Positions 2,083 to 41,576 of a DNA stretch of 64,000 bases are shown here, piece by piece. Each line of letters starts with the position of its first letter. The stretch's first letter is position 1. A program made the translations under genes and the position numbers. Source of the DNA: Candidatus Sulfopaludibacter sp. SbA3. Lineage in GTDB: Bacteria > Acidobacteriota > Terriglobia > 20CM-2-55-15. The stretch lies in contig CAMBFR010000002.1 of the NCBI GenBank assembly GCA_945865815.1, forward strand, positions 30,308 through 94,307, in the 5' to 3' direction. A model generated the notes under the pieces. It was not told the origin of the DNA. It searched no databases and worked only from the letters and a program-made list of their open reading frames with translations.

Positions 2083-3759
2083 ATGAAAATCTTCGCGATT
2101 TACCCCAACGCCGATGGCTATGGAAGGATTCCCACCGGATTGGCGATCGTCATGACCGTGCTTGAGAACGCGGGCCACCAACTCGATCTTTTCGACACGA
2201 CGTTTCTTCACGACGCCAACCATGACAACGACACCCGCGAACGGGCTGGCTTGGTCAAGACGGTGGAGTCGTATGTAGGCCCACAGCTGACCAGTTGTGA
2301 CGGGATGCCTGTCCTCGCCTACGAGTCCCTGAGCCAGGACGCCGTCGACAATCTGCTACGCGAGAAGCTGAAGCTGTCCAATCCCGACGTCGTAATCATG
2401 AGCATAGTCGAGGACAACTACAACTGGGCCGACAGACTTCTTCGCGTCGTCAAGAACTTCCGGCGATCGATCCCGGTGATCGTGGGTGGGCCCACGCCCT
2501 CCGCGGCGCCTGAACGGCTGATCGAGAATCCGCACATCGATTACCTGGTGCAGGGCGAGGGTGATGAAGCTGTAGTCGAACTCTGCGACGTATTGGAACG
2601 CGGCCGGAGCGTCGAGAACGTTAGGAATCTCTGGCACAAAACGAAAGACGGCGGCATCCATTCCACACCGCTTCGACCGTTTATCAACCTGGACTCGAGT
2701 CCCTATCAGAACGTGGAATTGTGGGATCGGCGGCATTTCTACAAGCCGTATGACGGGAAGATTTACTGGACAGGGTATTTCGAAATGTCGCGCGGGTGTC
2801 CGTACCTGTGCACTTATTGCGTCAATCACACTATTCAGAGCAGCCTGAAGACCGCTGGAAAATACTTCCGCCGCAAGACCCCGTCCGTGGCGGTGAAAGA
2901 GATCAAATACCACAAGGAGAAATACGGCCTCAAACGGATCGTGTTCTGCGACGACAACTTCCTCCTCATGCCCGGTCCGGCATTCGAGGCTTGGGGGGCT
3001 GAATTCAAGGAGGCCTGGCTCCGCGAGGTCAACTTGCCATATTGGATTACCACGTCCGCTGACTTCATCCATCCGCAGACGCTCCAGCTGTTGGCGGAGA
3101 CGGGATGTGACGGAATCGGGTTGGGCGTCGAAGCCGGGGGCGAATGGTTCAAGCGAAACATCCTCAAGCGGCGGCTGACGAACGAGCGCACGGTCGAGAT
3201 CTTCAAGTTGGCCCACGACTACGGGATCCGAACCACCGCGAACATCATGATGGGATTCCCCGGCGAGTACGAAGAAGACATCTTCGAGTCAATCAAGCTG
3301 ATTCGGAGAGTTCAACCGAAGAGCTTCGACGTGTCGCTGGTCGCACCCTACGTGGGGACGGATATTCACACCGCCTGCGTAACGCTGGGTTTGATCGACG
3401 TCTTTGACAAACCCGGCTTCCGAGGCATGAGTACGGAAATCTCGTTCCGTCAGTATTCGACTATTCGGAATCCCAATATCAGCCGGGAGCGTATCTCCGA
3501 CCTCTACGACACGTTCGTCGACTACGTCAGCGGAAAGCTGCCGATTCCCGAAAAGTATCTCGCGCCGGCCCCTGGAGCCGACGATACGGCTCCTCCACGA
3601 GGCGACATGAGCCGGGACGTGGCCGAGGCGATCAAAGGGATCAAGGCGGATACCCGCCCCGAGGCAAAGGAGTTGCCGGATGTGGGGGTTGTCGCCATCG
3701 GAGGTCTCAGGACCGCATCAAGAACTGAGACTATGGCGCCGGTCGGAAGCGACGTCTGA
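2083..3759 (+). CDS. B12-binding domain radical SAM protein (class B, cobalamin-dependent)
   Basis: N-terminal B12-binding Rossmann-like region (VVIMSIVEDNY...IPVIVGGPTPS...VQGEGDEAVVEL). Radical SAM CxxxCxxC motif MSRGCPYLCTYC. GGAGG-like SD (aaggag) about 8 nt upstream of the ATG. Confidence 0.85.
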   Translation: MKIFAIYPNADGYGRIPTGLAIVMTVLENAGHQLDLFDTTFLHDANHDNDTRERAGLVKTVESYVGPQLTSCDGMPVLAYESLSQDAVDNLLREKLKLSNPDVVIMSIVEDNYNWADRLLRVVKNFRRSIPVIVGGPTPSAAPERLIENPHIDYLVQGEGDEAVVELCDVLERGRSVENVRNLWHKTKDGGIHSTPLRPFINLDSSPYQNVELWDRRHFYKPYDGKIYWTGYFEMSRGCPYLCTYCVNHTIQSSLKTAGKYFRRKTPSVAVKEIKYHKEKYGLKRIVFCDDNFLLMPGPAFEAWGAEFKEAWLREVNLPYWITTSADFIHPQTLQLLAETGCDGIGLGVEAGGEWFKRNILKRRLTNERTVEIFKLAHDYGIRTTANIMMGFPGEYEEDIFESIKLIRRVQPKSFDVSLVAPYVGTDIHTACVTLGLIDVFDKPGFRGMSTEISFRQYSTIRNPNISRERISDLYDTFVDYVSGKLPIPEKYLAPAPGADDTAPPRGDMSRDVAEAIKGIKADTRPEAKELPDVGVVAIGGLRTASRTETMAPVGSDV

Positions 3760-3917
3760 CGGGCTCTCGCTTGTTTCTCACCGAAGTTTCCTTTTGAGCG
3801 CGCTCTGCTGCTCCCACGAGATCATCCCTTATTGTCACGACATTACCCGGAGCACCTGGATTCCAAGCACGCACGGCGCCAACCTTCTGACAGAACGAAC
3901 TCGATACGTTTCTTGAG

Positions 3918-3941
3918 TCCTGCAAAGGCAGGAATTCTTTG
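3918..3941 (+). terminator. weak hairpin (tcctgc-aaag-gcagga) followed by a T-rich run ATTCTTTG, downstream of the radical SAM gene at 2083..3759
   Basis: 6-bp stem, 4-nt loop and T-rich tail, read directly. Stem is short and GC content modest. Confidence 0.2.
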
Positions 3942-3970
3942 TCGGGCGAGCAAAAAAGTAGGTTACCTTT

Positions 3971-4711
3971 ATGGGCATGGGAACACCCATGGGACCATCG
4001 TTTGCATCAGATCCGAAGGGCGCACTCGAGTTCTTCAACGAATATGGCTATCAGATCGAGCCCGATGTCCACTCGGCCGCCGAGTGCAGGGAACTGATCG
4101 AGGCGTCCCACCGGCTCAGCGACTACGGCAACGGGAACTTGACGCCCGCGATGCAGGCGCACCGTTACGATCCCCGGTTCATGCTGGCCTTCTCAAATCC
4201 CAAAATCGTCTCGATCATGGAAATGCTCCTCTCCGGAAAGGTCAGCGGCCTGCAGACGGAGATTTTCTACTGCCCTCCGGGAACGCCCGGCTTCAGCCTG
4301 CACCAGGACAATTTTTACGCCGAAGTCGTGCGCGGGGGGTTCGCGACGGCGTGGTGCCCACTGCAAGACGTCACGTCCGAAAACGGAGGTCTGATTGTGT
4401 ACCCTCGCAGCCATCAACTGCCGCTGCTGCCGGTCGAACCGGTGCCTGACAGACCGGCGGCCACGCCCCACCAGGACCCTAACGCCGCGCAGATCCAATG
4501 CGTGCTGCCGACGGGCTTTGAGCCCGTAAACGCCGAGATTACGCTCGGCTGTGCGCTTTTCATCCACGGCTTTCTTGTACACGGATCGAATCAAAACCGC
4601 TCCACCGACCGCTACCGCCACGTCTTTCTGGGCACCTACGTGCGCCAGGGCGAGAAGTTCCGGGCGGGCAACTACGCCAAGCGCGAGGAAGTGAATGTCT
4701 ACCGAACCTAG
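3971..4711 (+). CDS. phytanoyl-CoA dioxygenase (PhyH) family Fe(II)/2-oxoglutarate-dependent oxygenase
   Basis: HQDNFY (HxD iron ligands) and distal FIHGFLVHGSNQN histidine, typical of the PhyH family; 246 aa. Confidence 0.65.
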   Translation: MGMGTPMGPSFASDPKGALEFFNEYGYQIEPDVHSAAECRELIEASHRLSDYGNGNLTPAMQAHRYDPRFMLAFSNPKIVSIMEMLLSGKVSGLQTEIFYCPPGTPGFSLHQDNFYAEVVRGGFATAWCPLQDVTSENGGLIVYPRSHQLPLLPVEPVPDRPAATPHQDPNAAQIQCVLPTGFEPVNAEITLGCALFIHGFLVHGSNQNRSTDRYRHVFLGTYVRQGEKFRAGNYAKREEVNVYRT

Positions 4712-5489
4712 GCTGGCGCTGGTAACGGGCGCGAGCGCAGGGATCGGACGCGAGATCACCCTGAGTTTGGCCCGTCAGGGAATGCGTGTGGTGGCCTGCG
4801 CTCGTGGAAAGCGGGCGCTGGCAGCGCTGGCACGCGAGGCGCAGGAGGAAAGCTTGCGCGTGGTGGTATTTAGCTGCGACGTTACCCGTGAAGCGGAGGT
4901 GCGAAAACTAGCCGTTTTCGTGCGACGGGAATGCGGTGGGGTCCTGGACGTGCTGGTGAACAATGCCGGCGGGCACAGGGCATTTGGAGAATTTGAAGAC
5001 CTCACGGTGGCTGACTGGGAGCAGGCGTACGCGCTGAACGTGTTGAGCGTGGTTCGGATGACGCGGGCCCTGCTGCCGCTGTTGCGCCGTTCGAAGCGGG
5101 CACCGGGCATCGTCAACCTGGCCTCCGCGGTTGCATTGTCCCCAGGTGCATTTCATCCGCACTACTCCGCAGCCAAGGCCGCGCTCCTGAATCTCTCAGT
5201 TTACCTGGCCAAGCGCTACGGACCCGAGGGTATCCGCGTGAATGCGGTCGCGCCGGGCACGATCACGGGGCCGGCCTGGGACCGCAACGTCGCCGCGTGC
5301 GCGAGAGACCGCCGCATGACTCATGCCGCGGCCGAACGGTTTTCGAGAGAGCGGCAACTAGCCAAGATCCCGCTGAGGCGGCTTGGCGAGGCTGCGGACG
5401 TGGCCGCGGCGGTGGCGTTCCTGGCTTCCGCGTCCGCCGCGTGGATCTCGGGTGTATGCATCCCGGTGGACGGAGGCGCCACACGATGA
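4695..5489 (+). CDS. SDR family NAD(P)-dependent oxidoreductase
   Basis: LALVTGASAGIGREI glycine-rich motif, NNAG, and YSAAKAA (YxxxK catalytic pair). Confidence 0.85.
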   Translation: MSTEPRLALVTGASAGIGREITLSLARQGMRVVACARGKRALAALAREAQEESLRVVVFSCDVTREAEVRKLAVFVRRECGGVLDVLVNNAGGHRAFGEFEDLTVADWEQAYALNVLSVVRMTRALLPLLRRSKRAPGIVNLASAVALSPGAFHPHYSAAKAALLNLSVYLAKRYGPEGIRVNAVAPGTITGPAWDRNVAACARDRRMTHAAAERFSRERQLAKIPLRRLGEAADVAAAVAFLASASAAWISGVCIPVDGGATR

Positions 5490-5500
5490 TCCAGCATCGT
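5483..5500. terminator. short hairpin (acgatg-atccag-catcgt) in the 60-bp gap between convergent genes
   Basis: 6-bp inverted repeat overlapping the SDR stop codon. Lies between the convergent 4695..5489 (+) and 5550..7535 (-) genes. Confidence 0.15.
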
Positions 5501-5549
5501 TACGAAGGCTGGCGTTTGCAGGACCGCGAGGCATCGTAGAGATCGAAGT

Positions 5550-7535
5550 CTAATGATGCCCTGCCAGCTTGAACGGCTCATCAATCGTCTCCGCCGCGCC
5601 GCGAATCGAGTAAAGATAGGACCCGCTCTTGCTGCCGAACCATATCACTTCACGGCACCAATCTTGCCAGTTCTCCCAGCGGGAACTCGTGCGGTCAATG
5701 GAATAGGTGCACGAGGTGCGGACGAGCGGGACCTCTTCGCCACAGACCGCGGCGCGGTAGAACTCCCAGATGTTGTAATCGCTCTTCACGGTAACATCGG
5801 CTTCGCAGAAGGGCTGACGGATCAACGCAGCATTCAGGGCGACGGCGGCGCGTAGCAACTCCTCGGGCATCTCGGTTCCAGTCTCGCGTAAGTAGACACA
5901 CAGCCGACGCTCAGCTTCGGCATGGAAGGCTGTGAGTTTTCCCTCTACCGAGAGCTTGATCATCATGTATTCGTCGGCGGGCCAGTACACGCCCAGCCAT
6001 TCAGGGGACGGGCACAGCTCGAAGTCACCTCGCTGGATGGCGCGCGCCTTTTCATGGAAGAACTGAGCGATCTCGGCGAGCACTGGGAATTCCGCCGTCT
6101 TCTCATTCAGGAATACCTCCGCAAGCTCACGGTAAGAGCGGCCGTACTCCTTGTTTAACAGAATAAACGGAATCTGAAGCAGCTTGTTGAAGTGCAGGAG
6201 ATTCAACATCCACGAGAACGCGCGAGCACGCACCCAGTCCTCGCGTGACAGCGACGAGTTGGCGATCACCAGCTTCTGCATTTCCGGCACGTCGCCTTCG
6301 GGCCGTTCAATGAGGCCGCGGATGTAGACCACCTCGTTCTCGATCGTCACGATCCCGAAGCGCTTCTGGTACTCGGGATCGCCCATCTCTGCGTTGGGCA
6401 GGATCGACAAGTTCATAAAGAAAATGCGGTTGTGCTGCCCGCCCTCAATCAGCGTGGCTACGCCGTCCATGTACGAGTCACACGTTTCGCCGGGCAAGCC
6501 GAGGATGATATCGCTGTAAGTCGGGATTCGATCCGCAGTGAAGCGGCGCTGAAGTTCCTGAAACGACTTCAGTGAAATATTGTCGCGCTTGATGTTTTTC
6601 AACGTCTCGGTGTCCGTGCTTTGGAACGACAGCGTGATCGCCTTGTTGAGGCCGCTGGTGGCTAAAAGCTTTTGGACCTGATAGGCGTTTTCGGTGGCGT
6701 TCTTGGTGTTCTGGACGGACATGGCATGCGGATAACCATACTTCTGCTTGGCCTCGACCACGCACTTCGCAATTTCGAAATCACGTTTAAGGATGCCGAA
6801 GTTGGCGTCGGCGCAGAATACAAACTCAATCTTGTTCCGAGCGAACCAGTCGACCTCGCGCTCAAGGCGGGGCATGCCGAACGGCGAAACCTTACTTTGG
6901 ATGGCCGAGCCCCAGTCGCAGTATGTGCACGAGAAGGGGCAGCCCCGGTTGGTCTCCCAGATCGCGAGCCACTTCTCGGCGGGGTTGGCCTCGATCAACG
7001 GCTCGAAGACGCCGTTCAGGTATGGCGAGGTCTCTTCGGCATAATCGGGGATGCGCGGGTTCTTTTCGTTTCGTTGGTAAATTCCGTCAGCTTTCAGGAA
7101 GCTCAGGGACTTGATCTCTCCCCAGGGGCGTTCGCCAAGACCTTCCAGAATATTCAGAAAAGGTGTCTCGCCCTCTCCGTGCACGACGAGGTCGATGAAA
7201 GTGTTCTGACGAAGGAACTCCTCAGCGTGATCCGGCACTTGGGGGCCGCCGAAGACAATCACAGTATTGGAATTCAGTTCCCTGAGGCGCTTGGCGATCG
7301 CAAGAGAAAGGTTCACGTTCCAGACGTATACGCTGAAAGCCGCAACGTCGGCCTTGGCGATGGCTTGGGCGCCTTTCTCGATCGGGAGGCGGGAGTGGAG
7401 CGGCAGCAAGAACTCGTAGTCCTCGGGCCGTCTGGCACGGGCCTTGACGAACGACTGCAACAGACCCACGGAATAGGGCAAGTACCCCTGTCCAGAGTAG
7501 TCGTTGTTGATTTGAATCAGAGCGACGCTAACCAC
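5550..7535 (-). CDS. B12-binding domain radical SAM protein with extended C-terminal domain (661 aa, GTG start)
   Basis: N-terminal B12-binding region (IVFGGPQVP...VVHGEGETPFLNIL). Radical SAM core ETNRGCPFSCTYCDWG. Paralogous in architecture to 12918..14945. Confidence 0.85.
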   Translation of the reverse strand: MVSVALIQINNDYSGQGYLPYSVGLLQSFVKARARRPEDYEFLLPLHSRLPIEKGAQAIAKADVAAFSVYVWNVNLSLAIAKRLRELNSNTVIVFGGPQVPDHAEEFLRQNTFIDLVVHGEGETPFLNILEGLGERPWGEIKSLSFLKADGIYQRNEKNPRIPDYAEETSPYLNGVFEPLIEANPAEKWLAIWETNRGCPFSCTYCDWGSAIQSKVSPFGMPRLEREVDWFARNKIEFVFCADANFGILKRDFEIAKCVVEAKQKYGYPHAMSVQNTKNATENAYQVQKLLATSGLNKAITLSFQSTDTETLKNIKRDNISLKSFQELQRRFTADRIPTYSDIILGLPGETCDSYMDGVATLIEGGQHNRIFFMNLSILPNAEMGDPEYQKRFGIVTIENEVVYIRGLIERPEGDVPEMQKLVIANSSLSREDWVRARAFSWMLNLLHFNKLLQIPFILLNKEYGRSYRELAEVFLNEKTAEFPVLAEIAQFFHEKARAIQRGDFELCPSPEWLGVYWPADEYMMIKLSVEGKLTAFHAEAERRLCVYLRETGTEMPEELLRAAVALNAALIRQPFCEADVTVKSDYNIWEFYRAAVCGEEVPLVRTSCTYSIDRTSSRWENWQDWCREVIWFGSKSGSYLYSIRGAAETIDEPFKLAGHH

Positions 7536-7604
7536 ACGGCACAGAATAGCACATCAAGTTATATCCATCGTTCAGAGGGCAAACGAAATAACTATCGGTA
7601 TCGG

Positions 7605-8471
7605 TCAATCGCCCCTGAGCTTGCGACGGATCTCGACCTCGCTCGGCGTGACCTGCTTCACCGTCGTCCCCATCATCACGTCAATTTCCCTACACCGTTT
7701 TCGCAATATATCCATTGCGAGTACCTCGAGGCTCGATTTTTGGTCGGTTCCCCACATGTCGTGGGACAAAGTGATATGCCTTTCAACGACCATTGCGCCC
7801 AATGACACTGCCAGGACGGTCGGTTCGAGGTCCGGTTCGTGGCCGGAATAGCCGACAACGCAGCCATATCTTTCTTTGAGAAACGGGATCAACGAAAGAT
7901 TGAGTTCCGCCCGAGGCGTCGGATAACTCGAATTTGTGTGCAATACAACCGGCTTGACGCCTTTCGACATGATCAGATTAATTGCCTGGTCGACTTCCTT
8001 GAGGTCTGACATGCCGGTCGATACCACCAGAGGCCTTCCTGATGATGCTGCTTCAGAAACGAGTTCATGCTTTGTCAGCATAGCGGATGGGATCTTGAGG
8101 AACGGTACGTCGTAATCGAGCAAGAACTGAAGGCTGTTCATGTCCCAGATGGAAGCGGTCCAATCCAGTGGCTTTTCTCGGCAATAACGATCAATGTCGT
8201 CGTAATCGCTCTTGCTTAGTTCCACCCTTCGTTTGTATTCCAGATAGGTCATGTGGCCCCAGGGTGTGTCACACGGTACGCTTTTTTGGTGCTCCGGAAC
8301 TGCTTTGTCGGGATCGCGCTTTTGAAATTTGGCGCAATTCCAGTTGCAAGCATTGACGGCGTCAATGAGCTTTTTCGCGATACCAAGATCGCCGTTGTGG
8401 TTGATTCCGATCTCACCAACAAAATAAGGAACGGTTAGATTCTCAAAGATTGTATTCATTTGCTGCTCCAC
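7605..8471 (-). CDS. NeuB-family (N-acetylneuraminate synthase-like) 2-ulosonic acid synthase without SAF domain
   Basis: FVGEIGINHNGDLGIAKKLIDAVNACNWNCAKFQKR matches the NeuB/PseI/LegI TIM-barrel N-terminus. At 288 aa it is too short to carry the C-terminal SAF domain. Confidence 0.7.
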   Translation of the reverse strand: MEQQMNTIFENLTVPYFVGEIGINHNGDLGIAKKLIDAVNACNWNCAKFQKRDPDKAVPEHQKSVPCDTPWGHMTYLEYKRRVELSKSDYDDIDRYCREKPLDWTASIWDMNSLQFLLDYDVPFLKIPSAMLTKHELVSEAASSGRPLVVSTGMSDLKEVDQAINLIMSKGVKPVVLHTNSSYPTPRAELNLSLIPFLKERYGCVVGYSGHEPDLEPTVLAVSLGAMVVERHITLSHDMWGTDQKSSLEVLAMDILRKRCREIDVMMGTTVKQVTPSEVEIRRKLRGD

Positions 8472-8687
8472 TCCTTACCAGGCGGTCCATCCGCCATCCA
8501 TTCTGAGAACGGTACTGCTGCTATGGCGACAAACATCTCCAACCAGAATTCCACGAGCGGTAATAATTCGCGAACATTCATGATTCGTCTGAGAGGCGTG
8601 TGGCGAGAATCAGATTCGGAAAAAGACGCATCCGGTGCGTTTGTAACTGCGCCAGGCTCAATGAATTTTACTCGAAGAGTGAATCGT

Positions 8688-9914
8688 TTACCGTGATGAC
8701 TCCAGCTTACGAATAGTCTTATGCAGACAATCAGCTTTTTGCTTCGCCAGACGGAGGTCGCGGTAGTTCGTCTTGAATTGCATCAGTTTTGGCTGAATCC
8801 GCTCCGCCACCGGGCACATTCCCTGGTGGTAGACCACGTCATTATAGATGTACGGGCATCGCCGAGCGAATCGCCGACTTGCCATCACTGGTTCCAAATA
8901 AGGAACTGACCATGCACCGTAGATCCCATCCCCACCCATTTCTTTGTAAGTACGGCGAAAGTCTTCCCACGTAACTCCGATTGCTTCCAAGCCTTCGTAG
9001 CGAACGCCCAGTGTGTAATACGAGTGCGACAGTCCCTCTGGAACCTCCTGAGGAATCAGGTAATTACAGTCCGCGATTATATCGAGGAAAAACTGCGCTG
9101 ACTTTTGTCGCAGTTCGACAAGTTCGTCCAGTCTTTCCAGTTGCCCGAGCGCGACAGCGGCATTGAATTCCGATAAGCGATAGTTCCAGCCAAGCTCATC
9201 GTGGCGCTTATAGTGAGGATTCTGGAAGACATCTTCGTTAAGCCGAACCCGGCCCTCACCGGCTCCGAGGTTCTTAAAACCATGACCACCGATCTTGCGT
9301 ACCAATTCGGCACACTTCTCGTCGTTGGTAATGATCATGCCGCCCTCGCCGCAGGAAATATGCTTTGTGTTCTCGAAGCTATAGCTTGCGAGATGACCGA
9401 TGGTTCCAGTCATTCTACCTTTGTAAAGGCTGAGGAAGCACTGGGCGTTGTCTTCGATAACCGTCAGACCGTGTTTTTTGGCGATTGCGAGCAAGGGATC
9501 AAGGTCGGCGGGGAGTCCATAAAGCGAGACGGCGATGATCGCCTTGGTTTTTGATGTTATTTTCCTCGCGACGTCCGCCGGATCAATATTGAACGTACGC
9601 GGATCAATGTCAGCGTAAACGGGAATCGCATTGGCATGCAACGTCGCTGTTGTATCCATGATGACGGTCAACGCGGGAGAAATTACCTCCTCTCCCGGCT
9701 GGACGCCCACCGCTTCGATCGCTGCATGTAGCGTCGATGTTCCTGAATTAAACGCAATGGCGTACCGGGCCCCAAACTTCTCAGCGAATTGCCGTTCCAA
9801 TACCTGGTTCCAGCTGCCGGCCGTTGCTGACCATGACTTGGCTTCCAGAACTCGCTTCAAATACTTATATTCATTCCCTAAATATTTCGGTGGGTTGAGC
9901 CGTGACGTTTTCAT
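8688..9914 (-). CDS. DegT/DnrJ/EryC1/StrS family PLP-dependent sugar aminotransferase
   Basis: FNSGTSTLHAAIEA..., SFENTKHISCGEGGMIITND (PLP-lysine region) and ELGWNYRLSEFNAAVALGQLERLDE, typical of the family. Confidence 0.85.
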   Translation of the reverse strand: MKTSRLNPPKYLGNEYKYLKRVLEAKSWSATAGSWNQVLERQFAEKFGARYAIAFNSGTSTLHAAIEAVGVQPGEEVISPALTVIMDTTATLHANAIPVYADIDPRTFNIDPADVARKITSKTKAIIAVSLYGLPADLDPLLAIAKKHGLTVIEDNAQCFLSLYKGRMTGTIGHLASYSFENTKHISCGEGGMIITNDEKCAELVRKIGGHGFKNLGAGEGRVRLNEDVFQNPHYKRHDELGWNYRLSEFNAAVALGQLERLDELVELRQKSAQFFLDIIADCNYLIPQEVPEGLSHSYYTLGVRYEGLEAIGVTWEDFRRTYKEMGGDGIYGAWSVPYLEPVMASRRFARRCPYIYNDVVYHQGMCPVAERIQPKLMQFKTNYRDLRLAKQKADCLHKTIRKLESSR

Positions 9915-11200
9915 GAATTGGGCTTCAGGCGTAATTTTGTTTTTGATTTCTGATTTGCCAGGAACTGCTCCTGCAGGTGCTGGTTGATTCGAACGATTTC
10001 AGGGTTCAAGTCAAGATACGTGATGACATCACGCAGGGTGAAGTCCTGAGCCCCGTGCTCCTGAAAATGCCCCACTATCTTCTCAAAGAACCGGAAATCA
10101 TCTGGGTAATCCAGGGTCATACGGATTTCCGGACGCTTGAATATGTCTGCAACATTTTGAAGCTTCTCGGTTCGGAATCGCCCGCTGTCTGTAAAGTAGA
10201 CCCACATCATTTCGGTATCGTCCGTATCCTTAATACGACAGACGATTTCAAGAGCGGACGTCTTAACCCCGTAAGTGAACGACCCCACCGCAAGCCCTTC
10301 GGATTCGATAAAATCCGCGCCAGACGAGCGGTATTGAGCAAAAGCAAGGTCAATCAACTCCGGTTCGCAGAACGGATCGTCCCCATCTGCGGTTACGAAA
10401 AACTCGACGCTGAATTGCTCCGCTGCACCGCGCCAGCGCTCAAGTTTGTCTTGCTCGCTGCCGCGAAAACATTCGATGCCCTCTGCTCTGGCAATGTCGC
10501 AGAGGACGCCATCTTCCTGATTCGTTGTCGTGCACAGAACGATAGTATCAGCGAGCCTGCTCTTTTTCAGGCGACGGATAAGGAACTCGATTACCGACTG
10601 TCCATTAAGGTCAAGGAAGCACTTGCGGGGTAGCCGAGTGGAACCAGTGCGAACGGTTACGAAAATGGCGGTCCGTTTCTTATTCGTCGCACCGTATTCA
10701 AGGCCCAGCAGTTCAGCGGCAATTTCCCGCACAACTCCGCCCCCTCCGGGCACGGATAGGATTACTTCGGATATAGAGCGCACCGCAGCATGTGCGTCCG
10801 CCGGGCAGATCGCATGACCGGCAGCCTTCATTGCCTGTAGATCATTAAGGTCGTTTCCCACATACCAAGTGGAATTTATGGGCACCTTTAACCGGTGGCA
10901 CGAATCCTCCAGGGCTTTACGCTTGTCTCCTGCCCCCTGCACACACTCGACCCCCAGCTTCTTGCAACGTTCGGAAACAACGGGATTCTTCTCGGTCGAA
11001 AGCACCAGGCATTGTATTCCGGCTTGCTGAAGCATTTCGAAACCTAGCCCGTCGGCGCGGTTGCAGGTGACGGCCTCCATGCCGTTCTCCATCACAAGCA
11101 CCCGGTTGTCTGTTAGCACCCCATCGAAATCGAACACCAGTAGTTGGGGGCGGTCCGGGATTCGGTTCCTACCGGCTGACTTGGTTGCCTGTTCACTCAT
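9911..11200 (-). CDS. fusion protein: KdsC-like HAD phosphatase (N-term) + acylneuraminate/3-deoxy-ulosonate cytidylyltransferase (C-term)
   Basis: N-term LLVFDFDGVLTDNRVLV...GNDLNDLQAMKAAG (HAD motifs I and IV, KdsC/Kdn-9-P phosphatase type). C-term AIFVTVRTGSTRLPRKCFLDLNGQSVIEF (SpsF/NeuA-type cytidylyltransferase). ATGA overlap with the upstream gene. Confidence 0.7.
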   Translation of the reverse strand: MSEQATKSAGRNRIPDRPQLLVFDFDGVLTDNRVLVMENGMEAVTCNRADGLGFEMLQQAGIQCLVLSTEKNPVVSERCKKLGVECVQGAGDKRKALEDSCHRLKVPINSTWYVGNDLNDLQAMKAAGHAICPADAHAAVRSISEVILSVPGGGGVVREIAAELLGLEYGATNKKRTAIFVTVRTGSTRLPRKCFLDLNGQSVIEFLIRRLKKSRLADTIVLCTTTNQEDGVLCDIARAEGIECFRGSEQDKLERWRGAAEQFSVEFFVTADGDDPFCEPELIDLAFAQYRSSGADFIESEGLAVGSFTYGVKTSALEIVCRIKDTDDTEMMWVYFTDSGRFRTEKLQNVADIFKRPEIRMTLDYPDDFRFFEKIVGHFQEHGAQDFTLRDVITYLDLNPEIVRINQHLQEQFLANQKSKTKLRLKPNS

Positions 11201-11365
11201 TCAATTGTTTAGTCCTCAAGAGTTATCCCGACTTTTGGTTTCGAGAAAGGGACAATTTGACGATGCCATCGACGCAGGGCATTGACAACGGAGGCGCCTT
11301 CTTCAGCGGAGGAGACCAGTACGACTGCCACGACCAGGCCGGGGTCAACGACGACTACAATCCGC

Positions 11366-12466
11366 TTACCCTGGAACCACCTGCCGACTCCTGGATTCGT
11401 CCAAATAGCTGTGCAGCTTGACCTGATCACACCGCTCGGCACACTTGTGACCTGCAGGAAATGTGCCGGTGATATGCATACGCCGAAACTCTTTATACTT
11501 TTCACCGTTCCAGATGTCTTCCAAGGACATGTCTTTAATGTTTCCGAACGAAAGTTCGGCGTCATAGTCCTGAGTACAAGGCACCACATCTCCGTTAGCC
11601 ATCACTGTCAAAGAGGTCCATGGGAATTCACAGTACTGCTGTGCATAGTGCGACCTGTTTTCCAGGGCTTCATCTTCCTCGTGATACCAGCGGTTATCCT
11701 GACTCTTCACATAGGCGAATACATCTTTACCTTGCCAGAGATCGAGAAAATCCATGTGCATCTGGCGCGAAATGTCGTCAACTCTGAGCTCGATCATGGT
11801 AGGCGCAATAATGGTCTTATAGCCCTTGGCTGCTTTCATGTCGATGACATCTAGTATCGTCTTAAAGGCTTGCTCAAAATTGGCATGCTTTCCTCGAATC
11901 TGCTTGATGGCCTCATCGTCAAGCGCATCAATGGAGAATTTCAACACGCCAAGGCCCGCATGCATGAGTCGTTCAGCCTTCTCAACAGTAATGTTTGCGG
12001 GTACGCAGGAAAAATAGGTGGGGATACCCAGGTCTGTACAGGCCTGCACTCGGTCGAAAATATTCTTGTCCACCAGAGGCTCACCATAACCATGCAAGAT
12101 CAAATGCTTGGCAACTATATGAAAATAGAAGGCATTCTCTGAGCGCTGCTCAAAGGTAATTCCATAGGACCCTTTGACGAATTCCCAAAAACTTTCAAGC
12201 TTTTTGTCGTCATGAACCTGCGATTGACTAATTATTCTCGAAAATTCCTGACTTTCCAGCGTGGTGATCGACCTCTTCATCAAACTGGTACGCGGGCACA
12301 TCACGCACGTCATGTTGCAGGCGTTCGTGGTTTCCACATTGAAAATGTACGGCTTGGTGTTGCGCAGGGCCTCCATTTCCCTTTCCACCTCTTCAAAGCT
12401 CACATCATTATTAAGAATGCGCTCCTTCAGGTGATGCGTCGCCATGAAAAAATCAATGTCAAACAT
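11366..12466 (-). CDS. radical SAM protein with Cys-rich C-terminal (SPASM-like) region
   Basis: ETTNACNMTCVMCPRT (CxxxCxxC). The C-terminal VVPCTQDYDAELSFGNIKDMSLEDIW...HKCAERCDQ contains additional Cys clusters consistent with an auxiliary Fe-S (SPASM/twitch) domain. Confidence 0.7.
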   Translation of the reverse strand: MFDIDFFMATHHLKERILNNDVSFEEVEREMEALRNTKPYIFNVETTNACNMTCVMCPRTSLMKRSITTLESQEFSRIISQSQVHDDKKLESFWEFVKGSYGITFEQRSENAFYFHIVAKHLILHGYGEPLVDKNIFDRVQACTDLGIPTYFSCVPANITVEKAERLMHAGLGVLKFSIDALDDEAIKQIRGKHANFEQAFKTILDVIDMKAAKGYKTIIAPTMIELRVDDISRQMHMDFLDLWQGKDVFAYVKSQDNRWYHEEDEALENRSHYAQQYCEFPWTSLTVMANGDVVPCTQDYDAELSFGNIKDMSLEDIWNGEKYKEFRRMHITGTFPAGHKCAERCDQVKLHSYLDESRSRQVVPG

Positions 12467-12623
12467 AATTGGAGTCTACTTTGTTTACGATTTCGGCCAA
12501 AGAACATAAGTGGCCAAGAGCCCTTTACGGACCTGGCGCTTTCCGAACTCTTGTCGACACCACGCGGCGAGATCGCGCCTTATGGGGCGACAGCGATTTG
12601 CATTCGGATCAATGATCACTGTA

Positions 12624-12641
12624 TGACATCCATGGATGTCA
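12624..12641. promoter_or_regulatory. perfect 18-bp palindrome TGACATCCATGGATGTCA in the 450-bp divergent intergenic region; candidate dimeric transcription-factor operator
   Basis: Verified base by base: positions 12624..12641 are self-complementary. Located between divergently transcribed radical SAM genes (starts at 12466 and 12918). Confidence 0.35.
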
Positions 12642-12917
12642 GTTTCGATGAGAGTCCACCTCGGTTCCTCTCATTTGGTTTCGCTTGCCGGGTGGAAAAG
12701 GTTATGGGAAAGACTGGCCGGAGCGGCCTTGGAAGACTCTTCGAGTTTTCGGCTTTCCCAGAACCTCGACGACAGAGGATAATTCAACCGAATCCTCGCT
12801 CATTGTTTAGGCAACCGAAGTTTTATTTGTGAGCAATCAGGGGGAATTGACTGGATTGAAGAAAGTAGCAGCTTTGAAACCGATATCTCAAGACCGCACA
12901 CGCTCGGGAGGTTCCAC

Positions 12918-14945
12918 TTGAAAACGAGGGTCTACCTCGCTGACTTAACACACACTCGAAACGGCATAATGGCTTTGACCTTTCCTATCGGCACAGCGTT
13001 CGTAGCCGCTTATGCGAAACATGTATTAGGCGACGATTTTGAATTCCACCTCTTCAAATTTCCTGAACGTTTGAGTCAGGCAATCAGTGAAAAGCCTCCA
13101 CGCGTGCTGGCACTGTCCAATTATTCCTGGAACCTGGAACTCGGCTACAAAATAAGCGCCTGGGCCAAGCGGCAAGATCCCAAGCTCATCGTCATTTTCG
13201 GGGGTCCTAACTTTCCTGTTTCGACTGATGAAAAGGCGAAATTCCTTCGGCGAAGATCGGCCATAGATGTCTATGTGGAAAACGAGGGTGAAGTGGGATT
13301 TGCCGATTTGCTCACCAACCTGGAGAATTACAATTTCGACATCGCCGCCTTTAAACGCTCCCACCAGGCGGTTGGGAACTGCACGTATCTTGACGGCAAT
13401 CAAGTAATCCAAGGCGGAATAGATCGAATTCGAGACGTCAACGCCATCCCCTCCCCTTATCTGACCGGAATTTTGGATGAATTCTTTGAATTCCCTTTGA
13501 CTCCCATGATCGAAACGACCCGGGGCTGCCCCTTCAGTTGCTCGTTTTGCGCCGATGGCCTTCCTTCAAAGAGCAAAGTAACCGCCTTTCACCACGATAG
13601 AGTTCGGGAGGAACTGAATTACATTGCCGAGCGCATCAAGAATAGTAATGAGCTTCTGATTACCGACCTGAATTTCGGGATGTATAAACAAGATTTGGAA
13701 ACGGCTCAATTCATTGCGGATATTCAAAGCAAGTTCAACTGGCCTGTGCTCATCAAGGCATCCGCAGGAAAAAATCTACCCGAACGGATCATTGAAGCCG
13801 CATCCCTTCTCAAGGGGTCGTGGGTAATCGGATCCGCAATCCAGTCTTCAGACCAGGAAGTCCTGAAGAATATCAAGCGCGCCAACATATCCGTGGACGC
13901 ATATAGAGACTTCCTGAAACTGATGAACAACCTGGACAAGAAAGCCTCGACTTTCAGCGAGATAATACTGGCGTTACCCGGGGATTCGAAGAAAAAGCAC
14001 TTCGAGTCTCTGCGATACGCGATCGACAGCGGCGTGAACCTCGTGAAGTCGTATCAGGCGATGTTGCTCATGGGAACGGACATGGCATCCCAGGCAACCC
14101 GTGTTCAGTTTGGACTCATGACTAAATTCAGAATCATGGCTGGCGGTGTCGGGGTCTATCAGTTTGGCGAAGAAGAAATTCGGGTGGCAGAAATCCAGGA
14201 GATTATTGTCGGCAGTAAGGACATGTCTTTTGAAGATTACGTGTCCTGCCGCATCATGAGCCTTATCATTGAGACGTATTACAACAACGCCCCGTTCGGG
14301 GAGATTCTTGCCGCCATGAAGGTTATGGGGCTACCGGTGTTCGATTTCCTGGTCTATCTTAACGAGCACGAGGAGTTGTATACGCCAAGAATCAAAGAAA
14401 TAGTCAAGAGGTTCGTTGATGGCACGACCAGCAACTTATACGATTCTCACGAAGAAGCGGAGTCGCTGGGCCTGAGCCCGGACCTGTTTGACCGGTATCT
14501 CTCTGGTGATCTGGGCTTCAACGAAGCGCTGGAATGTAAAGCACTCCTCTATTTTGAGATGGAGCAGACTCTGGCTGTGCTGCTGACCGCTTTAAAAATG
14601 TATCTCGCAGAGAAGGATTTGCTGACTGAAACCATCCAGGACTATTTTGATCAGCTCGGTGATTTTATTCTGTGCAAGAAGAAAGAGATCAACGAGACAG
14701 AGTTGGTTATAGAAAGACTCTTCAATTATGATTTCGGGGCAATCGATGCTCTGAATTATCAAGTCGATCCCCGAAGTATCCAACGAGCAAGCGAGGGCAT
14801 TCGCTTCACGTTCTTCCACGACCAAGAGCAAAAAAATTACATTAACCAGTCCCTCAGCCTCTATAAGAACCATCCCGGTGGAATCAGCAGGGCGCTTTAC
14901 GTGCAGAATCTGAAAAAGATGTACAGGACTTTTCAGCGCCTGTGA
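12918..14945 (+). CDS. B12-binding domain radical SAM protein with extended C-terminal domain (675 aa, TTG start)
   Basis: B12-binding region (LIVIFGGPNFP...YVENEGEVGFADLL). Radical SAM core ETTRGCPFSCSFCADG. GGGAGG SD 6 nt upstream of the TTG at 12918. Confidence 0.85.
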   Translation: MKTRVYLADLTHTRNGIMALTFPIGTAFVAAYAKHVLGDDFEFHLFKFPERLSQAISEKPPRVLALSNYSWNLELGYKISAWAKRQDPKLIVIFGGPNFPVSTDEKAKFLRRRSAIDVYVENEGEVGFADLLTNLENYNFDIAAFKRSHQAVGNCTYLDGNQVIQGGIDRIRDVNAIPSPYLTGILDEFFEFPLTPMIETTRGCPFSCSFCADGLPSKSKVTAFHHDRVREELNYIAERIKNSNELLITDLNFGMYKQDLETAQFIADIQSKFNWPVLIKASAGKNLPERIIEAASLLKGSWVIGSAIQSSDQEVLKNIKRANISVDAYRDFLKLMNNLDKKASTFSEIILALPGDSKKKHFESLRYAIDSGVNLVKSYQAMLLMGTDMASQATRVQFGLMTKFRIMAGGVGVYQFGEEEIRVAEIQEIIVGSKDMSFEDYVSCRIMSLIIETYYNNAPFGEILAAMKVMGLPVFDFLVYLNEHEELYTPRIKEIVKRFVDGTTSNLYDSHEEAESLGLSPDLFDRYLSGDLGFNEALECKALLYFEMEQTLAVLLTALKMYLAEKDLLTETIQDYFDQLGDFILCKKKEINETELVIERLFNYDFGAIDALNYQVDPRSIQRASEGIRFTFFHDQEQKNYINQSLSLYKNHPGGISRALYVQNLKKMYRTFQRL

Positions 14946-15325
14946 ATACTGTCGGGGATATTCTCTACCCTCTCAGCTTGATTTCGGTGGCTCAAACCTT
15001 CCCGAAGCGCAATCTCCTGAACAGTCTTCATCAGTTTCTGTTCAATGCGTTCGAGTTTCACGTACATGCGATACATGACAAAGAACACAAATACGATAGC
15101 CATTCCGAAAAACGTTCCCAAGCCGGCTCTACCTCCCCCAAACGCATTAATCAGGATGTCAATCAGCGCCGGAAACACAGCAACGACAACGATGGCTATC
15201 CAGGTGGCGGTCCAAAATACGAACATTTGCAGGGATTCAAGACGAGAACGGAAGTCCACATAGCTCTTGGAAATTGCGATCACGGCGAGCAGCACGGAGA
15301 ATATCTGCGAAATGAAGACAAACAT
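14933..15325 (-). CDS. DUF2304-like small membrane protein (GT2-associated)
   Basis: 130 aa with three predicted TM helices followed by a charged coiled tail (MYRMYVKLERIEQKLMKTVQEIALREG). Start abuts the stop of the upstream GT2 (15325 vs 15327). This architecture typically accompanies polyprenyl-phosphate GT2 genes. Confidence 0.5.
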   Translation of the reverse strand: MFVFISQIFSVLLAVIAISKSYVDFRSRLESLQMFVFWTATWIAIVVVAVFPALIDILINAFGGGRAGLGTFFGMAIVFVFFVMYRMYVKLERIEQKLMKTVQEIALREGLSHRNQAERVENIPDSIHRR

Positions 15326-15326
15326 T

Positions 15327-16058
15327 TCAGGTTCGCCGCATCAATCGCATCAATAAGCCGAGAATCAGATTGACTCCGTTCAGGAAATGCTGGCCCTTGG
15401 CGCGCGAGTAATCCGTGTAGACAGGTTTGACGGGAACTGATTTGTAGCAGAGATTCTTTCTGTAGATTTCTCCGACAATCTCAGAACATATCTCGTAGCC
15501 CGCCGATTCAAGTTCCAGTCTTTCAACGGCGCTGCTCGTGAAGACCTTGAAGCCGGATTGGGAATCGGAAACGATCTTGCCGTAAACTAGGTAAGTCAAC
15601 GCGTTGAGAAGCAAGTTGGCGGCTATCCTCGTTAATGGCATACCGGCCGGCTCGAGAATCCGGCTGCCGATGACTACGTCGAAATGCCCTTCATTCAGGC
15701 ACCGAACCAGTGGCTCGATCTCTGCGGGATTGTGCTGGCCATCCGAATCCATAGTTACGATGACATCCGCTTCAAGCGCACGCGCAGCCTTCAACCCTGT
15801 AATGGTAGCTGCTCCCGCGCCGAGATTAACAATGTGCCGGATAACCACAGCGCCATGACGCCGGGCTATTTCGCCGGTCGCGTCTGCGGAGCCATCGTCG
15901 ACAACGATGCTGAAAACGGACATCCCCTCGATGTTGGCAGGAATTAATGCCAGAACCTGTCCAATGACGGCAGCCTCGTTGCAGGCCGGCATCACAACCG
16001 CAAGAAGGCCGGAACTGATGGGCAGGTCCGCTTTTTCCGTGGACTCAAGGTTAATCAC
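15327..16058 (-). CDS. GT2 family glycosyltransferase (polyprenyl-phosphate sugar synthase, DPM1/GtrB-like, soluble form)
   Basis: LAVVMPACNEAAVIGQVL, IVVDDGSADATGEIA and MDSDGQH (DxD region) typical of GT-A dolichyl/undecaprenyl-phosphate glycosyltransferases; 243 aa. Confidence 0.8.
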   Translation of the reverse strand: MINLESTEKADLPISSGLLAVVMPACNEAAVIGQVLALIPANIEGMSVFSIVVDDGSADATGEIARRHGAVVIRHIVNLGAGAATITGLKAARALEADVIVTMDSDGQHNPAEIEPLVRCLNEGHFDVVIGSRILEPAGMPLTRIAANLLLNALTYLVYGKIVSDSQSGFKVFTSSAVERLELESAGYEICSEIVGEIYRKNLCYKSVPVKPVYTDYSRAKGQHFLNGVNLILGLLMRLMRRT

Positions 16059-16168
16059 AAACGTATCCCTCGGATGAGCCTACAATCTGATACATATGCC
16101 AGCATCCAAATTCTATGCGCCAATTCTAGAACGAATTGCTGTGCTAGCGAACGAAATGAGCGTTTAAG

Positions 16169-17647
16169 TTAGGGCGATATGCTCTCAGACTCACTCGCCG
16201 TCCTTCCCAACCTCAGGTAAGCGTAGAAGCCAACCAGGGCTACGAACAGAATCAGCGAAAGCATATACGCTGCTTTCACCGTGTCCTGGTACGACTCATC
16301 ATTTGCCATTGTAAGCAACTGGGGACACAGGGCAAACAGTGGCAGGTTATTCGAATTCCCGGTCCAGTACGTACCGGTAGTTGGAAGCGCCCAGAGCCAT
16401 GAGTTCCGAACGAGCATGGCGAAAAGACCCAGCAATAGAACCCATTTGACAGCCACACGAAGGCTTGCGTTTCCGATTCCTTCGAAGACCTGATCAAATC
16501 CAGAGGCAGCGAGCAATACGAGATATAGGATAAGGAATATCATCATGCGGGCCGGATATTGATCCAATGCCGAAATAGGGATCACATACTGGAGAAGTAG
16601 CCAGGCCACCTGGAGGACGGACGCGAGGAGACAAACAAGGATAACCAGCATTGCACAGACAAATGGTTTTGCCCTTAACGGATTAGGCGTTTGTGTTCCA
16701 CTCCACGCTGGATAAGCAATGGCTACGGCAATGAGGGCGAGCCCGAGCCAGCCAAGATATGCTGTGCGCTCCCACTCAATACCATCTGCGATAACCGGGT
16801 ACGGAACCAATAATGATTGAAACAACTGGGGGATAATTGTGAATGGATAAGTAAAGCTACCGAAGCCGCTGGATATCAGACGTCCGCTTTCGGCATACCC
16901 GCTGTAGAAGAGAACCGGGATGAACAGGTACGCAGCCACTGAGAACGCGATTCCGAATCCAAGTCCCACCCATGGAAGCTGGCGACGGTGAAACAGAAAA
17001 ATGCAGGTAGTGCCCAGTAGAATGGGTTGAAGAACGTGAAGGGCACCGAACGAAATAATCAGGACCAATAATCCAGCCCACTCCAGTGTCAGCATCAGCT
17101 TCTGGCGGCGGTTAGCGTGCTCCGACTCCGCAAAGTTTGCCCAAAGCCAAAACACCCAGGGGATAAGGAAATAGCCTCCCAGATCTCCGATATGTCCAAC
17201 ACCAGCCTTGGCGCTGTAAAAGCCGTTAAACACAAAGAGGACTACTGCGAAAGTCGCGGCAGCGACAGAAAGATTCAGCCTGTGAATCCACCTCATAATG
17301 CCCAGGAAACCGATCGAATAAAGCAACACGACGTGCAGGACAATCCACTGAGAAACGCGGAGCCATCCAAGAGCAACGAGGTCTGGTGAAGTGAGTATCC
17401 ACGGTGCAGCCAGAAGACGAAAATTGTTCAGATAACTGCCCCGGACGCTTTCGTCACAAAAGAACGATGCGTGATAAGGAATCTGACCTGTACGAATGGC
17501 TGTCTGGGTGACCGTCAATATTGACTCGTACAGCATCCAGTCAAAAGTGTGCGCATTGCCCCAGTCCAAAAACAGCATCCAGTAGACTGCTCCAAGAATG
17601 TAAATACTCAGAAGCCAGATCCATTTGGAGTCAAGCTGGCGCAGCAC
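16169..17647 (-). CDS. polytopic integral membrane protein, putative GT-C-type glycosyltransferase
   Basis: 492 aa with more than 10 hydrophobic helices and aromatic-rich loops. No soluble-domain motifs. Placed between two polyprenyl-P GT2 genes. Confidence 0.45.
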   Translation of the reverse strand: MLRQLDSKWIWLLSIYILGAVYWMLFLDWGNAHTFDWMLYESILTVTQTAIRTGQIPYHASFFCDESVRGSYLNNFRLLAAPWILTSPDLVALGWLRVSQWIVLHVVLLYSIGFLGIMRWIHRLNLSVAAATFAVVLFVFNGFYSAKAGVGHIGDLGGYFLIPWVFWLWANFAESEHANRRQKLMLTLEWAGLLVLIISFGALHVLQPILLGTTCIFLFHRRQLPWVGLGFGIAFSVAAYLFIPVLFYSGYAESGRLISSGFGSFTYPFTIIPQLFQSLLVPYPVIADGIEWERTAYLGWLGLALIAVAIAYPAWSGTQTPNPLRAKPFVCAMLVILVCLLASVLQVAWLLLQYVIPISALDQYPARMMIFLILYLVLLAASGFDQVFEGIGNASLRVAVKWVLLLGLFAMLVRNSWLWALPTTGTYWTGNSNNLPLFALCPQLLTMANDESYQDTVKAAYMLSLILFVALVGFYAYLRLGRTASESESISP

Positions 17648-17697
17648 GTTGGCGGTTTCAGCGGGACGGATCAGATAGACCTCAAGGGCGCGTCATG

Positions 17698-41575: not shown

Positions 41576-41576
41576 T

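Follow-up and report, generated by a model that had tools for sequence, protein, structure and literature searches.

Two distinct TokK/CysS-type cobalamin-dependent radical SAM enzymes encoded in a surface-glycan gene island of an acidobacterium

The contig CAMBFR010000002.1 of Candidatus Sulfopaludibacter sp. SbA3 (GenBank assembly GCA_945865815.1) carries an island of surface-glycan genes, within which two genes, termed A and B below, encode large radical S-adenosylmethionine (SAM) enzymes that depend on cobalamin. We analysed positions 30,308 to 94,307 of this contig; the whole 64-kb stretch is referred to as the window, and all coordinates count from its first nucleotide. A first-pass annotation of the region had described A and B as duplicated paralogues with a long, uncharacterised C-terminal domain, divergently arranged around a palindromic operator and perhaps acting on a common scaffold. 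Its coordinates and lengths for the two open reading frames (ORFs) are correct. The genes, their predicted domains and the likely ribosome-binding site of B are as follows.

5550..7535, minus strand: gene A, 661 aa, GTG start; predicted cobalamin-dependent radical SAM enzyme of a sister family to TokK
6981..7535, minus strand: cobalamin-binding Rossmann domain of A, approximately residues 1-185 (PF02310; boundary placed by analogy with CysS 1-185), containing W72
6246..6980, minus strand: radical SAM (beta/alpha)6 domain of A, approximately residues 186-430, containing the cluster cysteines, W208 and the motif ILGLPGET
5553..6245, minus strand: C-terminal domain of A, approximately residues 431-661, made of helices and a small sheet; sequence particular to the family, predicted fold TokK-like
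12906..12911, plus strand: Shine-Dalgarno-like GGGAGG, 6 nt upstream of the TTG of B
12918..14945, plus strand: gene B, 675 aa, TTG start; predicted cobalamin-dependent radical SAM enzyme on a basal branch of the TokK/CysS clade
14229..14942, plus strand: C-terminal domain of B, approximately residues 438-675, family-specific

Gene B is apparently monocistronic. Its TTG start, already proposed in the first-pass annotation, is credible because GGGAGG lies 6 nt upstream, the orthologues share the N-terminus MKxK[IV]YLADLTHT from residue 1, and the BLASTP similarity between A and B starts at residue 5. The exact translation from this start is missing from a collection of 15 billion proteins, in which A and the SPASM protein of the same contig are both present; gene callers probably chose another start for B, for example the ATG at codon 18. 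Downstream, a gene for a DUF2304 membrane protein and a family 2 glycosyltransferase (GT2) gene converge on B (14933..16058), the end of the former overlapping the B stop codon by 13 nt.

The cobalamin-binding and radical SAM motifs that had been quoted for the two proteins are found in both: IVFGGP, HGEGE, ETNRGCPFSCTYC and ILGLPGETCDSY in A, and VIFGGP, ENEGE, ETTRGCPFSCSFC and ILALPGDSKKKH in B. At E<=0.01, Pfam recognises only B12-binding (PF02310) and Radical_SAM (PF04055) in either protein, both above the gathering score; the PF04055 match covers residues 195-351 in A and ends at residue 360 in B, and the C-terminal part is left unmatched. Each protein has a single CX3CX2C motif (C199/C203/C206 in A, C204/C208/C211 in B), and neither contains DxHxxG, the motif of a cobalamin-ligating histidine. 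An N-terminal B12-binding Rossmann domain followed by a CX3CX2C domain, the layout of class B radical SAM enzymes, is thus present in both. The two proteins align by BLASTP at 28.5% identity over 470 aa (E 9e-50), with no significant alignment in the last ~200 residues. Since their mutual score (157-172 bits) lies far above the 47-60 bits that they reach against the other two class B radical SAM proteins of the window (2083..3759 and 17698..19254), A and B belong to one subfamily, and the common architecture noted earlier is borne out.

The only solved proteins with sequence similarity to A or B are TokK and CysS. Searched as a single sequence against the PDB, A matches TokK (7kdx) with E 4e-92 and CysS with E 4e-57, and B matches CysS best (E 1e-40), followed by TokK (E 1e-36). 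Family profiles give 430 bits to TokK and 276 bits to CysS for A, and 205 and 190 bits, respectively, for B. The best NCBIfam model for both is NF033712, the KedN5 family of methylcobalamin-dependent radical SAM C-methyltransferases, which is matched over profile positions ~55-402 of 624, its C-terminal third remaining unmatched. On a like-for-like phmmer scale, A and B score 157 bits against each other, A scores 313 bits with TokK and 197 with CysS, and B scores 143 bits with CysS and 130 with TokK. Furthermore, in a neighbour-joining tree of 342 core columns (100 bootstraps; rooted on the other class B enzymes of the window) the topology is (B family,(CysS,(TokK,A family))). A and TokK form a clade without B in 100/100 bootstraps. 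With respect to other class B enzymes, the two families are part of the TokK/CysS clade. Within the core columns, A is 38.6% and B 27.9% identical to TokK.

Both families are large. More than 5,500 proteins match A at E<=1e-10, full-length and 53-64% identical among the top 119 listed, and their range includes cyanobacteria, proteobacteria, Planctomycetota, Elusimicrobiota, Omnitrophota and Nitrospirota, among others. For B there are more than 1,800 matches, again full-length, with 50-69% identity among the top 120 listed. The A protein itself is recorded only from an NCBI contig and from the Logan assembly of ERR3719140; among the GTDB species representatives it is missing, the nearest protein there being 58% identical.

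According to the TokK paper, Trp76, which lies under the cobalt, and the active-site Trp215 are common to TokK, ThnK and CysS and are not kept in Fom3, PhpK, GenK or TsrM; substitution of Trp215 strongly slows TokK. W72 of A corresponds to TokK W76 and W71 of B to CysS W75, and each is invariant in its alignment of 60 homologues. Hence, a lower-axial Trp without a His ligand, as in TokK (Trp76) and CysS (Trp75), is found in both proteins. In addition, W208 of A, within CDWGS, aligns with TokK C213-D-W215 and is invariant in the A family. For the TokK ligands Arg280, Asn515 and Tyr652, either conservation is lacking or no alignment is possible.

AlphaFold2 models of A and B were built on 60-sequence alignments; their predicted local distance difference test (pLDDT) values are 90.1 and 91.1, respectively, with a predicted template modelling score of 0.90. 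In Foldseek searches of the PDB, A superposes on TokK with a template modelling score (TM) of 0.80 over 640-646 columns (root-mean-square deviation (rmsd) 3.4-4.0 A), and B with TM 0.73-0.74 over 670 columns. CysS follows with TM 0.71-0.73 for A and 0.69-0.71 for B. OxsB, TsrM, MgmA and AprD4 are more distant, with 0.43-0.51 against A (AprD4 0.43) and, for OxsB, TsrM and MgmA, 0.40-0.47 against B, for which no AprD4 match was listed. The OxsB superpositions (TM 0.44-0.51) have an rmsd of 12-15 A. On full-length TM to TokK, both models therefore have the three-domain fold of TokK, ThnK and CysS. The family-profile match to TokK ends at residue 477 in A and 404 in B, and the residues that match TokK could by themselves yield a TM of at most ~0.72 for A (1-477) and ~0.65 for B. 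The full-length values are higher, which requires that the C-terminal domains superpose as well, at least partly.

Judged by these models, the C-terminal domain of A and B, ~230 aa long, is a TokK/CysS-type third domain, and calling it uncharacterised no longer seems apt. The published domains of CysS span residues 1-185 (cobalamin), 186-432 (radical SAM) and 433-630 (C-terminal), and in the TokK and CysS structures this last domain forms the channel for the substrate and is in contact with the pantetheine tail of that substrate. Of the ~330 further residues that the first-pass annotation had counted after the radical SAM core, a folded C-terminal domain does follow, but the separate domain comprises ~225-235 aa and the remainder belongs to the radical SAM barrel, within which the motif ILGLPGET (A) or ILALPGDS (B) is also located. 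The C-terminal regions are predicted to be folded rather than disordered linkers, with pLDDT mostly 87-98 (in A up to approximately residue 630, and in B). A kinship with DUF4070/BchE-type or OxsB C-terminal domains, suggested at first, did not hold up: Pfam gives no such match, the BchE model scores 35-39 bits in the N-terminal part only, and OxsB reaches a TM of at most 0.51.

Within either family, the C-terminal domain shows strong sequence conservation (in the A family, for example, W434, R438, W442, W518, P519, W632, K636 and Y642), and when that of B was used as the sole query, it retrieved 359 representative clusters, always at residues ~438-675 of proteins of ~670-717 aa or in fragments. 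Between the families, the C-terminal parts alone show no profile similarity (hhalign probability 0.35%), which fits the idea of diverged substrate domains; their predicted secondary-structure elements come in the same order.

The genes around A and B point to the biosynthesis of surface glycans. Those closest to the two genes, or related to them, are listed below.

829..1797, minus strand: aldo-keto reductase (Pfam), a conserved partner of the A family
2083..3759, plus strand: class B radical SAM protein of a different subfamily, 558 aa
7605..8471, minus strand: NeuB-like synthase, 288 aa, without a SAF domain
8688..9914, minus strand: DegT aminotransferase
9911..11200, minus strand: fusion of a KdsC-like phosphatase and a CMP-cytidylyltransferase
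7605..11200, minus strand: ulosonic-acid module formed by the preceding three genes, upstream of A on the same strand
11366..12466, minus strand: SPASM/twitch radical SAM protein, 366 aa (Pfam SPASM and Radical_SAM; BtrN, 4m7s, E 3e-11), with a BtrN-like auxiliary-cluster domain
17698..19254, minus strand: class B radical SAM protein of another subfamily, 518 aa

Gene A is the fifth and last gene of a leftward string that starts with the SPASM gene and continues with the KdsC/CMP-transferase fusion, DegT and the NeuB-like synthase. In the module at 7605..11200, the haloacid dehalogenase (HAD) domain beside the short NeuB resembles KdsC and Kdn-9-phosphate phosphatases and is fused to the CMP-cytidylyltransferase; the short NeuB and this fusion hint at a route to a Kdn/Kdo-like ulosonic acid through phosphorylated substrates. 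The glycan genes of the window further include GT2, UDP-glucose dehydrogenase, epimerases, a GmhA-like gene, transaldolase and a second NeuB set. The latter, of the legionaminic-acid type (38339..49196), comprises NeuB with a SAF domain, a hydrolysing UDP-GlcNAc 2-epimerase and a CBS-nucleotidyltransferase, and also holds a HisH/HisF-like pair, DegT, ATP-grasp and PHP proteins. At 59555..60637, a 3-dehydroquinate-synthase-like gene, possibly encoding a sugar-phosphate cyclase, adjoins GFO/IDH/MocA oxidoreductases. Five radical SAM genes lie within 2083..19254 (class B on the plus strand, A, the BtrN-like SPASM gene on the minus strand, B, and class B on the minus strand), a density of radical enzymes that is unusual for a polysaccharide locus.

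Base composition sets A apart from its surroundings. The block 2083..7535, which contains the class B radical SAM gene, a PhyH dioxygenase, a short-chain dehydrogenase/reductase (SDR) and A, has a G+C content at third codon positions (GC3) of 0.74-0.77, and that of all genes neighbouring the block, including B and the aldo-keto reductase, is 0.56-0.63. This suggests that 2083..7535 is a mosaic insertion that parted A from its usual aldo-keto reductase partner.

Every protein of the window was searched against two sets of loci, 80 from genomes, around A homologues, and 81 from metagenomes, around B homologues. A homologue of the aldo-keto reductase lies within 10 kb of the A homologue in 57 of the 80 loci and directly downstream on the same strand in 33 of ~71. 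Sugar-nucleotide genes occur in 70/80 A loci, and an HddA-like heptose-7-phosphate kinase and/or an HddC/GmhB-like fusion in 48/80. GDP-mannose-dehydratase-like and GDP-fucose-synthase-like SDRs, as well as E1 alpha/beta enzymes dependent on thiamine pyrophosphate (TPP), are also frequent there. The neighbours of B are SDRs acting on nucleoside-diphosphate sugars, DegT aminotransferases, sugar C-methyltransferase-like genes and further class B enzymes. Among 26 long B loci, 21 contain sugar genes, 12 a SPASM radical SAM gene and five an HldE-like gene. Thus, the partners of the two families differ: A goes with the aldo-keto reductase and GDP-heptose-type genes, and B with the BtrN-like SPASM protein and HldE-type genes. 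We also considered the SPASM gene as a strict partner of B, which is only partly true. By clustering, its family is found in 17/81 B loci, often adjoining the B homologue, and tblastn with the SPASM protein of the window finds it in 5/81 only.

One B-type enzyme (P0216, locus L168, 4599..7247) is fused at its C-terminus to an HldC-like nucleotidyltransferase domain (PF01467). Its neighbours are a PfkB kinase lacking PF01467 and a GmhA-like SIS gene, so that the fusion, together with a PfkB kinase devoid of that very domain, provides a Rosetta-stone link between the B type and nucleotide-heptose synthesis. Three other loci (L082, L166 and L167; ~12-20 kb in L082 and L166) contain B homologues that are 66-68% identical to B, in the same gene order, with the SPASM gene directly upstream. 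The B homologue is followed by an unknown 384-aa protein, an 80-aa ORF and a TagF-like glycerophosphotransferase, and further on by a Fom1-like fusion of phosphoenolpyruvate (PEP) mutase and nucleotidyltransferase, an iron-dependent alcohol dehydrogenase (Fe-ADH) and E1 TPP subunits. These loci look like a pathway for a phosphonate-decorated glycan.

Collectively, these observations lead us to propose, with a probability of about 0.6, that A and B are two distinct cobalamin radical SAM enzymes of the TokK/ThnK/CysS type, which probably methylate surface-glycan sugars in different steps. The fold, the motifs, the family relationships and the gene neighbourhoods are shown by the analysis; methyl transfer, a sugar substrate and any iteration are what we infer, and the following scheme is modelled on TokK and CysS. 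The N-terminal Rossmann domain would hold a base-off/His-off cobalamin above the conserved Trp, and the radical SAM barrel with its CX3CX2C-bound [4Fe-4S] cluster would be joined by the family-specific C-terminal domain of ~230 aa, closing the substrate channel. Two SAM molecules would be spent per turnover. The first would methylate cob(I)alamin; the second would give rise to a 5'-deoxyadenosyl radical, which would abstract hydrogen from an unactivated sp3 carbon. The substrate radical would then take the methyl group from methylcobalamin, possibly repeatedly on the same carbon. The idea of iterative modification, raised in the first-pass annotation, is reasonable by analogy, as TokK and CysS, to which A and B are closest among characterised enzymes, methylate iteratively. 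Gene context makes nucleotide-activated sugars (heptose or ulosonic-acid derivatives), or their substituents, the most likely substrates, and A and B, instead of acting as a duplicated pair, probably catalyse two separate methylation steps.

Several points weigh against this proposal. The substrate assignment of both families comes solely from gene neighbourhood, and the characterised relatives TokK, ThnK and CysS use pantetheine-bearing intermediates of secondary metabolism, not sugars. The NF033712 scores, 265.3 bits for A and 163.4 bits for B, are well under the curated cut-off of 700, so that neither protein qualifies as a member of that family. B lacks an equivalent of TokK Trp215, having CADG instead, with D213 and G214 conserved across its family. 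TokK Arg280, which binds the substrate carboxylate, is replaced by Ser273 in A, implying that the substrate of A differs from the carbapenam of TokK. The equivalence of the C-terminal domains is based on full-length TM-scores and the order of secondary-structure elements, and not even the A and B family profiles find similarity to the TokK and CysS sequences over the last ~200 residues.

Four other readings were considered. One is that the substrate is a pantetheine-, coenzyme A (CoA)- or carrier-protein-bound acyl or aryl group, destined for later N-acyl decoration of an amino sugar or nonulosonic acid. In all characterised relatives, the channel to which the C-terminal domain contributes takes up a pantetheine tail, the DegT aminotransferase genes that are frequent neighbours would make amino sugars, and the 80-aa ORF follows the B homologue in the three loci described above. 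Nevertheless, none of the neighbours of A and B in the window was recognised as an acyl carrier protein, an acyl-CoA ligase or an N-acyltransferase, the C-terminal domains do not resemble those of TokK and CysS in sequence, and the HldC-like fusion points to a nucleotide sugar. We therefore consider a substrate of this kind unlikely, if the best placed of the alternatives.

The original framing, in which A and B are a locally duplicated pair, works sequentially on one scaffold and is co-regulated from a palindromic operator between the two genes, does not hold, and we give this reading little credence. It could draw on the shared architecture and subfamily, on the presence of both genes in one glycan island with three further radical SAM genes, and on the occurrence of same-type pairs elsewhere. 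Recent or local duplication is nonetheless contradicted by the phmmer scores, in which A is nearer to TokK (313 bits) and CysS (197) than to B (157), by the bootstraps that unite A with TokK to the exclusion of B, and by GC3 (0.755 for A, 0.598 for B). Nor do the orthologues occur as A+B pairs: none of the 80 A loci has a B-type gene and none of the 81 B loci an A-type gene. The only pairs seen were of the same type, in three loci. At 5124..10107 of L165, the locus with A's nearest relative, an aldo-keto reductase gene stands between two A-type genes (53% and 64% identical to A) within a cluster of GHMP-kinase, epimerase, TylCIII-like C-methyltransferase and RmlC-like genes; L022 has a second TokK-like gene, and L088 two B-type genes in tandem. 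As far as sequence comparison can tell, A and B are ancient relatives from two separate widespread families, not a local duplicated pair.

The proposed shared operator fares no better. It is the SPASM gene, not A, that diverges from B, and 5.4 kb separate the starts of A and B. The features between the SPASM gene and B are the following.

12467..12917, no strand: divergent spacer of 451 nt between the SPASM gene and B
12624..12641, no strand: perfect 18-nt palindrome TGACATCCATGGATGTCA, candidate protein-binding site

The palindrome is real, lies in the only long spacer of the region and is the longest in the window; when the 451-nt spacer was shuffled 2000 times, palindromes of at least 16 nt appeared in 12 cases, and two were observed in the 64 kb against ~1.4 expected. 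However, A is located 4.9 kb away, at the end of its five-gene string, and the genes on either side of the spacer are the SPASM gene and B. TGACATCCATGGATGTCA occurs once in the window; it is not found upstream of B homologues, and across the 167 fetched loci only two occurrences turned up, each with one mismatch and at chance level. No DNA-binding regulator was found among the ~50 ORFs of the window that were scanned. An operator role thus has nothing in its favour beyond the palindrome itself, which, on its sequence, may reasonably be regarded as a candidate binding site and nothing more. A palindrome regulon was rejected, since neither the window nor the related loci contain further sites. 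A riboswitch or other structured RNA in the spacer was likewise rejected: there is no Rfam match at gathering score or at E<=1, and the folding energy is unremarkable (z-score -1.1). The promoter scan of the spacer returned one weak promoter-like site, no more than chance, and the terminator scan nothing above chance. An imperfect hairpin at 12699..12766 (14-nt arms, 13/14 paired, 40-nt loop) overlaps the only promoter-like match. Overall, the sequence observations of the first-pass annotation were largely right, but its interpretation was only half right, as local duplication, general pairing and a shared operator all fell away.

According to a third alternative, B, and perhaps A, is Fom3-like and methylates a small cytidylylated head-group with which the glycan is decorated, for example CMP-2-hydroxyethylphosphonate or a CDP-alcohol. 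The three loci with B homologues 66-68% identical to B give this idea some substance, as a Fom1-like PEP-mutase/nucleotidyltransferase fusion, Fe-ADH and a TagF-like glycerophosphotransferase lie 3 kb away. Moreover, one B homologue is fused to a cytidylyltransferase-like domain, and cytidylyltransferases are present in the window. Yet no PEP mutase was detected among the scanned ORFs of the window, and, among the loci examined, the link to PEP mutase is confined to these three, which share gene order and closely related B homologues. The fused PF01467 domain has a PfkB kinase and a GmhA-like gene as neighbours, which suits HldC, and hence heptose, better, and PhpK-type models score weakly against A and B (43-50 bits). 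This reading is improbable, about as much as that of a duplicated pair. Least probable of all is that one or both are non-methylases performing sugar rearrangement, cyclisation or dehydration; class B does include enzymes of such chemistry (OxsB, BchE and AprD4-like), B lacks the Trp215 equivalent, and AprD4 and OxsB are among the weaker structural matches, but the TM values of OxsB (<=0.51) and AprD4 (0.43) compare with 0.74-0.80 for TokK, both families invariably keep the lower-axial Trp that TokK and CysS typically have, and both belong to the TokK/CysS clade relative to other class B enzymes.

These two large, uncharacterised, related families, which consistently occur in surface-polysaccharide loci beside heptose and nonulosonic-acid genes, offer enzymologists concrete candidates for both enzyme and substrate, and suggest that many uncultured bacteria have surface glycans with C-alkyl modifications uncatalogued by current glycan chemistry. 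Labels such as "radical SAM protein" or "YgiQ" on A- and B-type proteins could be replaced. To our knowledge, no catalysts other than cobalamin-dependent radical SAM methylases put a methyl group on unactivated sp3 carbons, and we are aware of studies of the TokK/CysS type in antibiotic pathways only. In full-text searches of the literature, no cobalamin radical SAM enzyme was found tied to nonulosonic acids, legionaminic acid, heptose or O-antigen, and in a 2026 review on B12 radical SAM enzymes neither sugars nor glycans come up. More tentatively, and with the odds somewhat against it, the A and B families may be the first TokK/CysS-type methylases of primary cell-envelope glycan biosynthesis, C-alkylating nucleotide-activated heptoses, ulosonic acids or their substituents. 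They would then attach at least one C-methyl group, and perhaps build ethyl or isopropyl substituents or chain-extended carbons, with the rapidly diverging C-terminal domain setting sugar specificity; a widespread, unrecognised class of C-alkylated surface sugars in environmental bacteria would be predicted.

Among known systems, TokK and ThnK, the methylases that alkylate C6 of carbapenems (PDB 7kdx, 7kdy), are closest to A. Like A and B, they have three domains, CX3CX2C and a Trp under the cobalt, and the A family is the sister of TokK (38.6% core identity, E 4e-92, TM 0.80). The active-site Trp215 is kept in A (W208) but not in B. Unlike TokK and ThnK, which are encoded in a beta-lactam cluster, A and B reside in a surface-glycan island, and A differs from TokK at Arg280 (Ser273) and throughout its C-terminal ~200 residues, which have no sequence counterpart in TokK. 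CysS of the cystobactamid pathway (PDB 9n1b-d), which converts an O-methyl group to ethyl, isopropyl, sec-butyl and tert-butyl, has the same three domains (TM 0.69-0.73), shares the equivalent of its Trp75 with both proteins and is the best PDB sequence match of B (E 1e-40). Its substrate, however, is a pantetheinylated aminobenzoate, the Trp of its CFWG motif gives way to CADG in B, and its C-terminal domain is unrelated in sequence. The KedN5 family (NF033712) is the top NCBIfam model for both proteins, but at 265 and 163 bits against a cut-off of 700; the proposed role of KedN5 is in forming the isopropoxy group of the kedarcidin naphthonate. GenK, Fom3 and PhpK carry out cobalamin-dependent radical methylation of an sp3 carbon or phosphorus on sugar or cytidylylated substrates, the kind of substrate proposed here, but belong to other subfamilies and, according to the TokK paper, do not conserve its Trp76 and Trp215. 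The kind of enzyme and its fold are thus already known; cell-envelope sugars as substrates of the TokK/CysS type would, if our proposal is right, be new.

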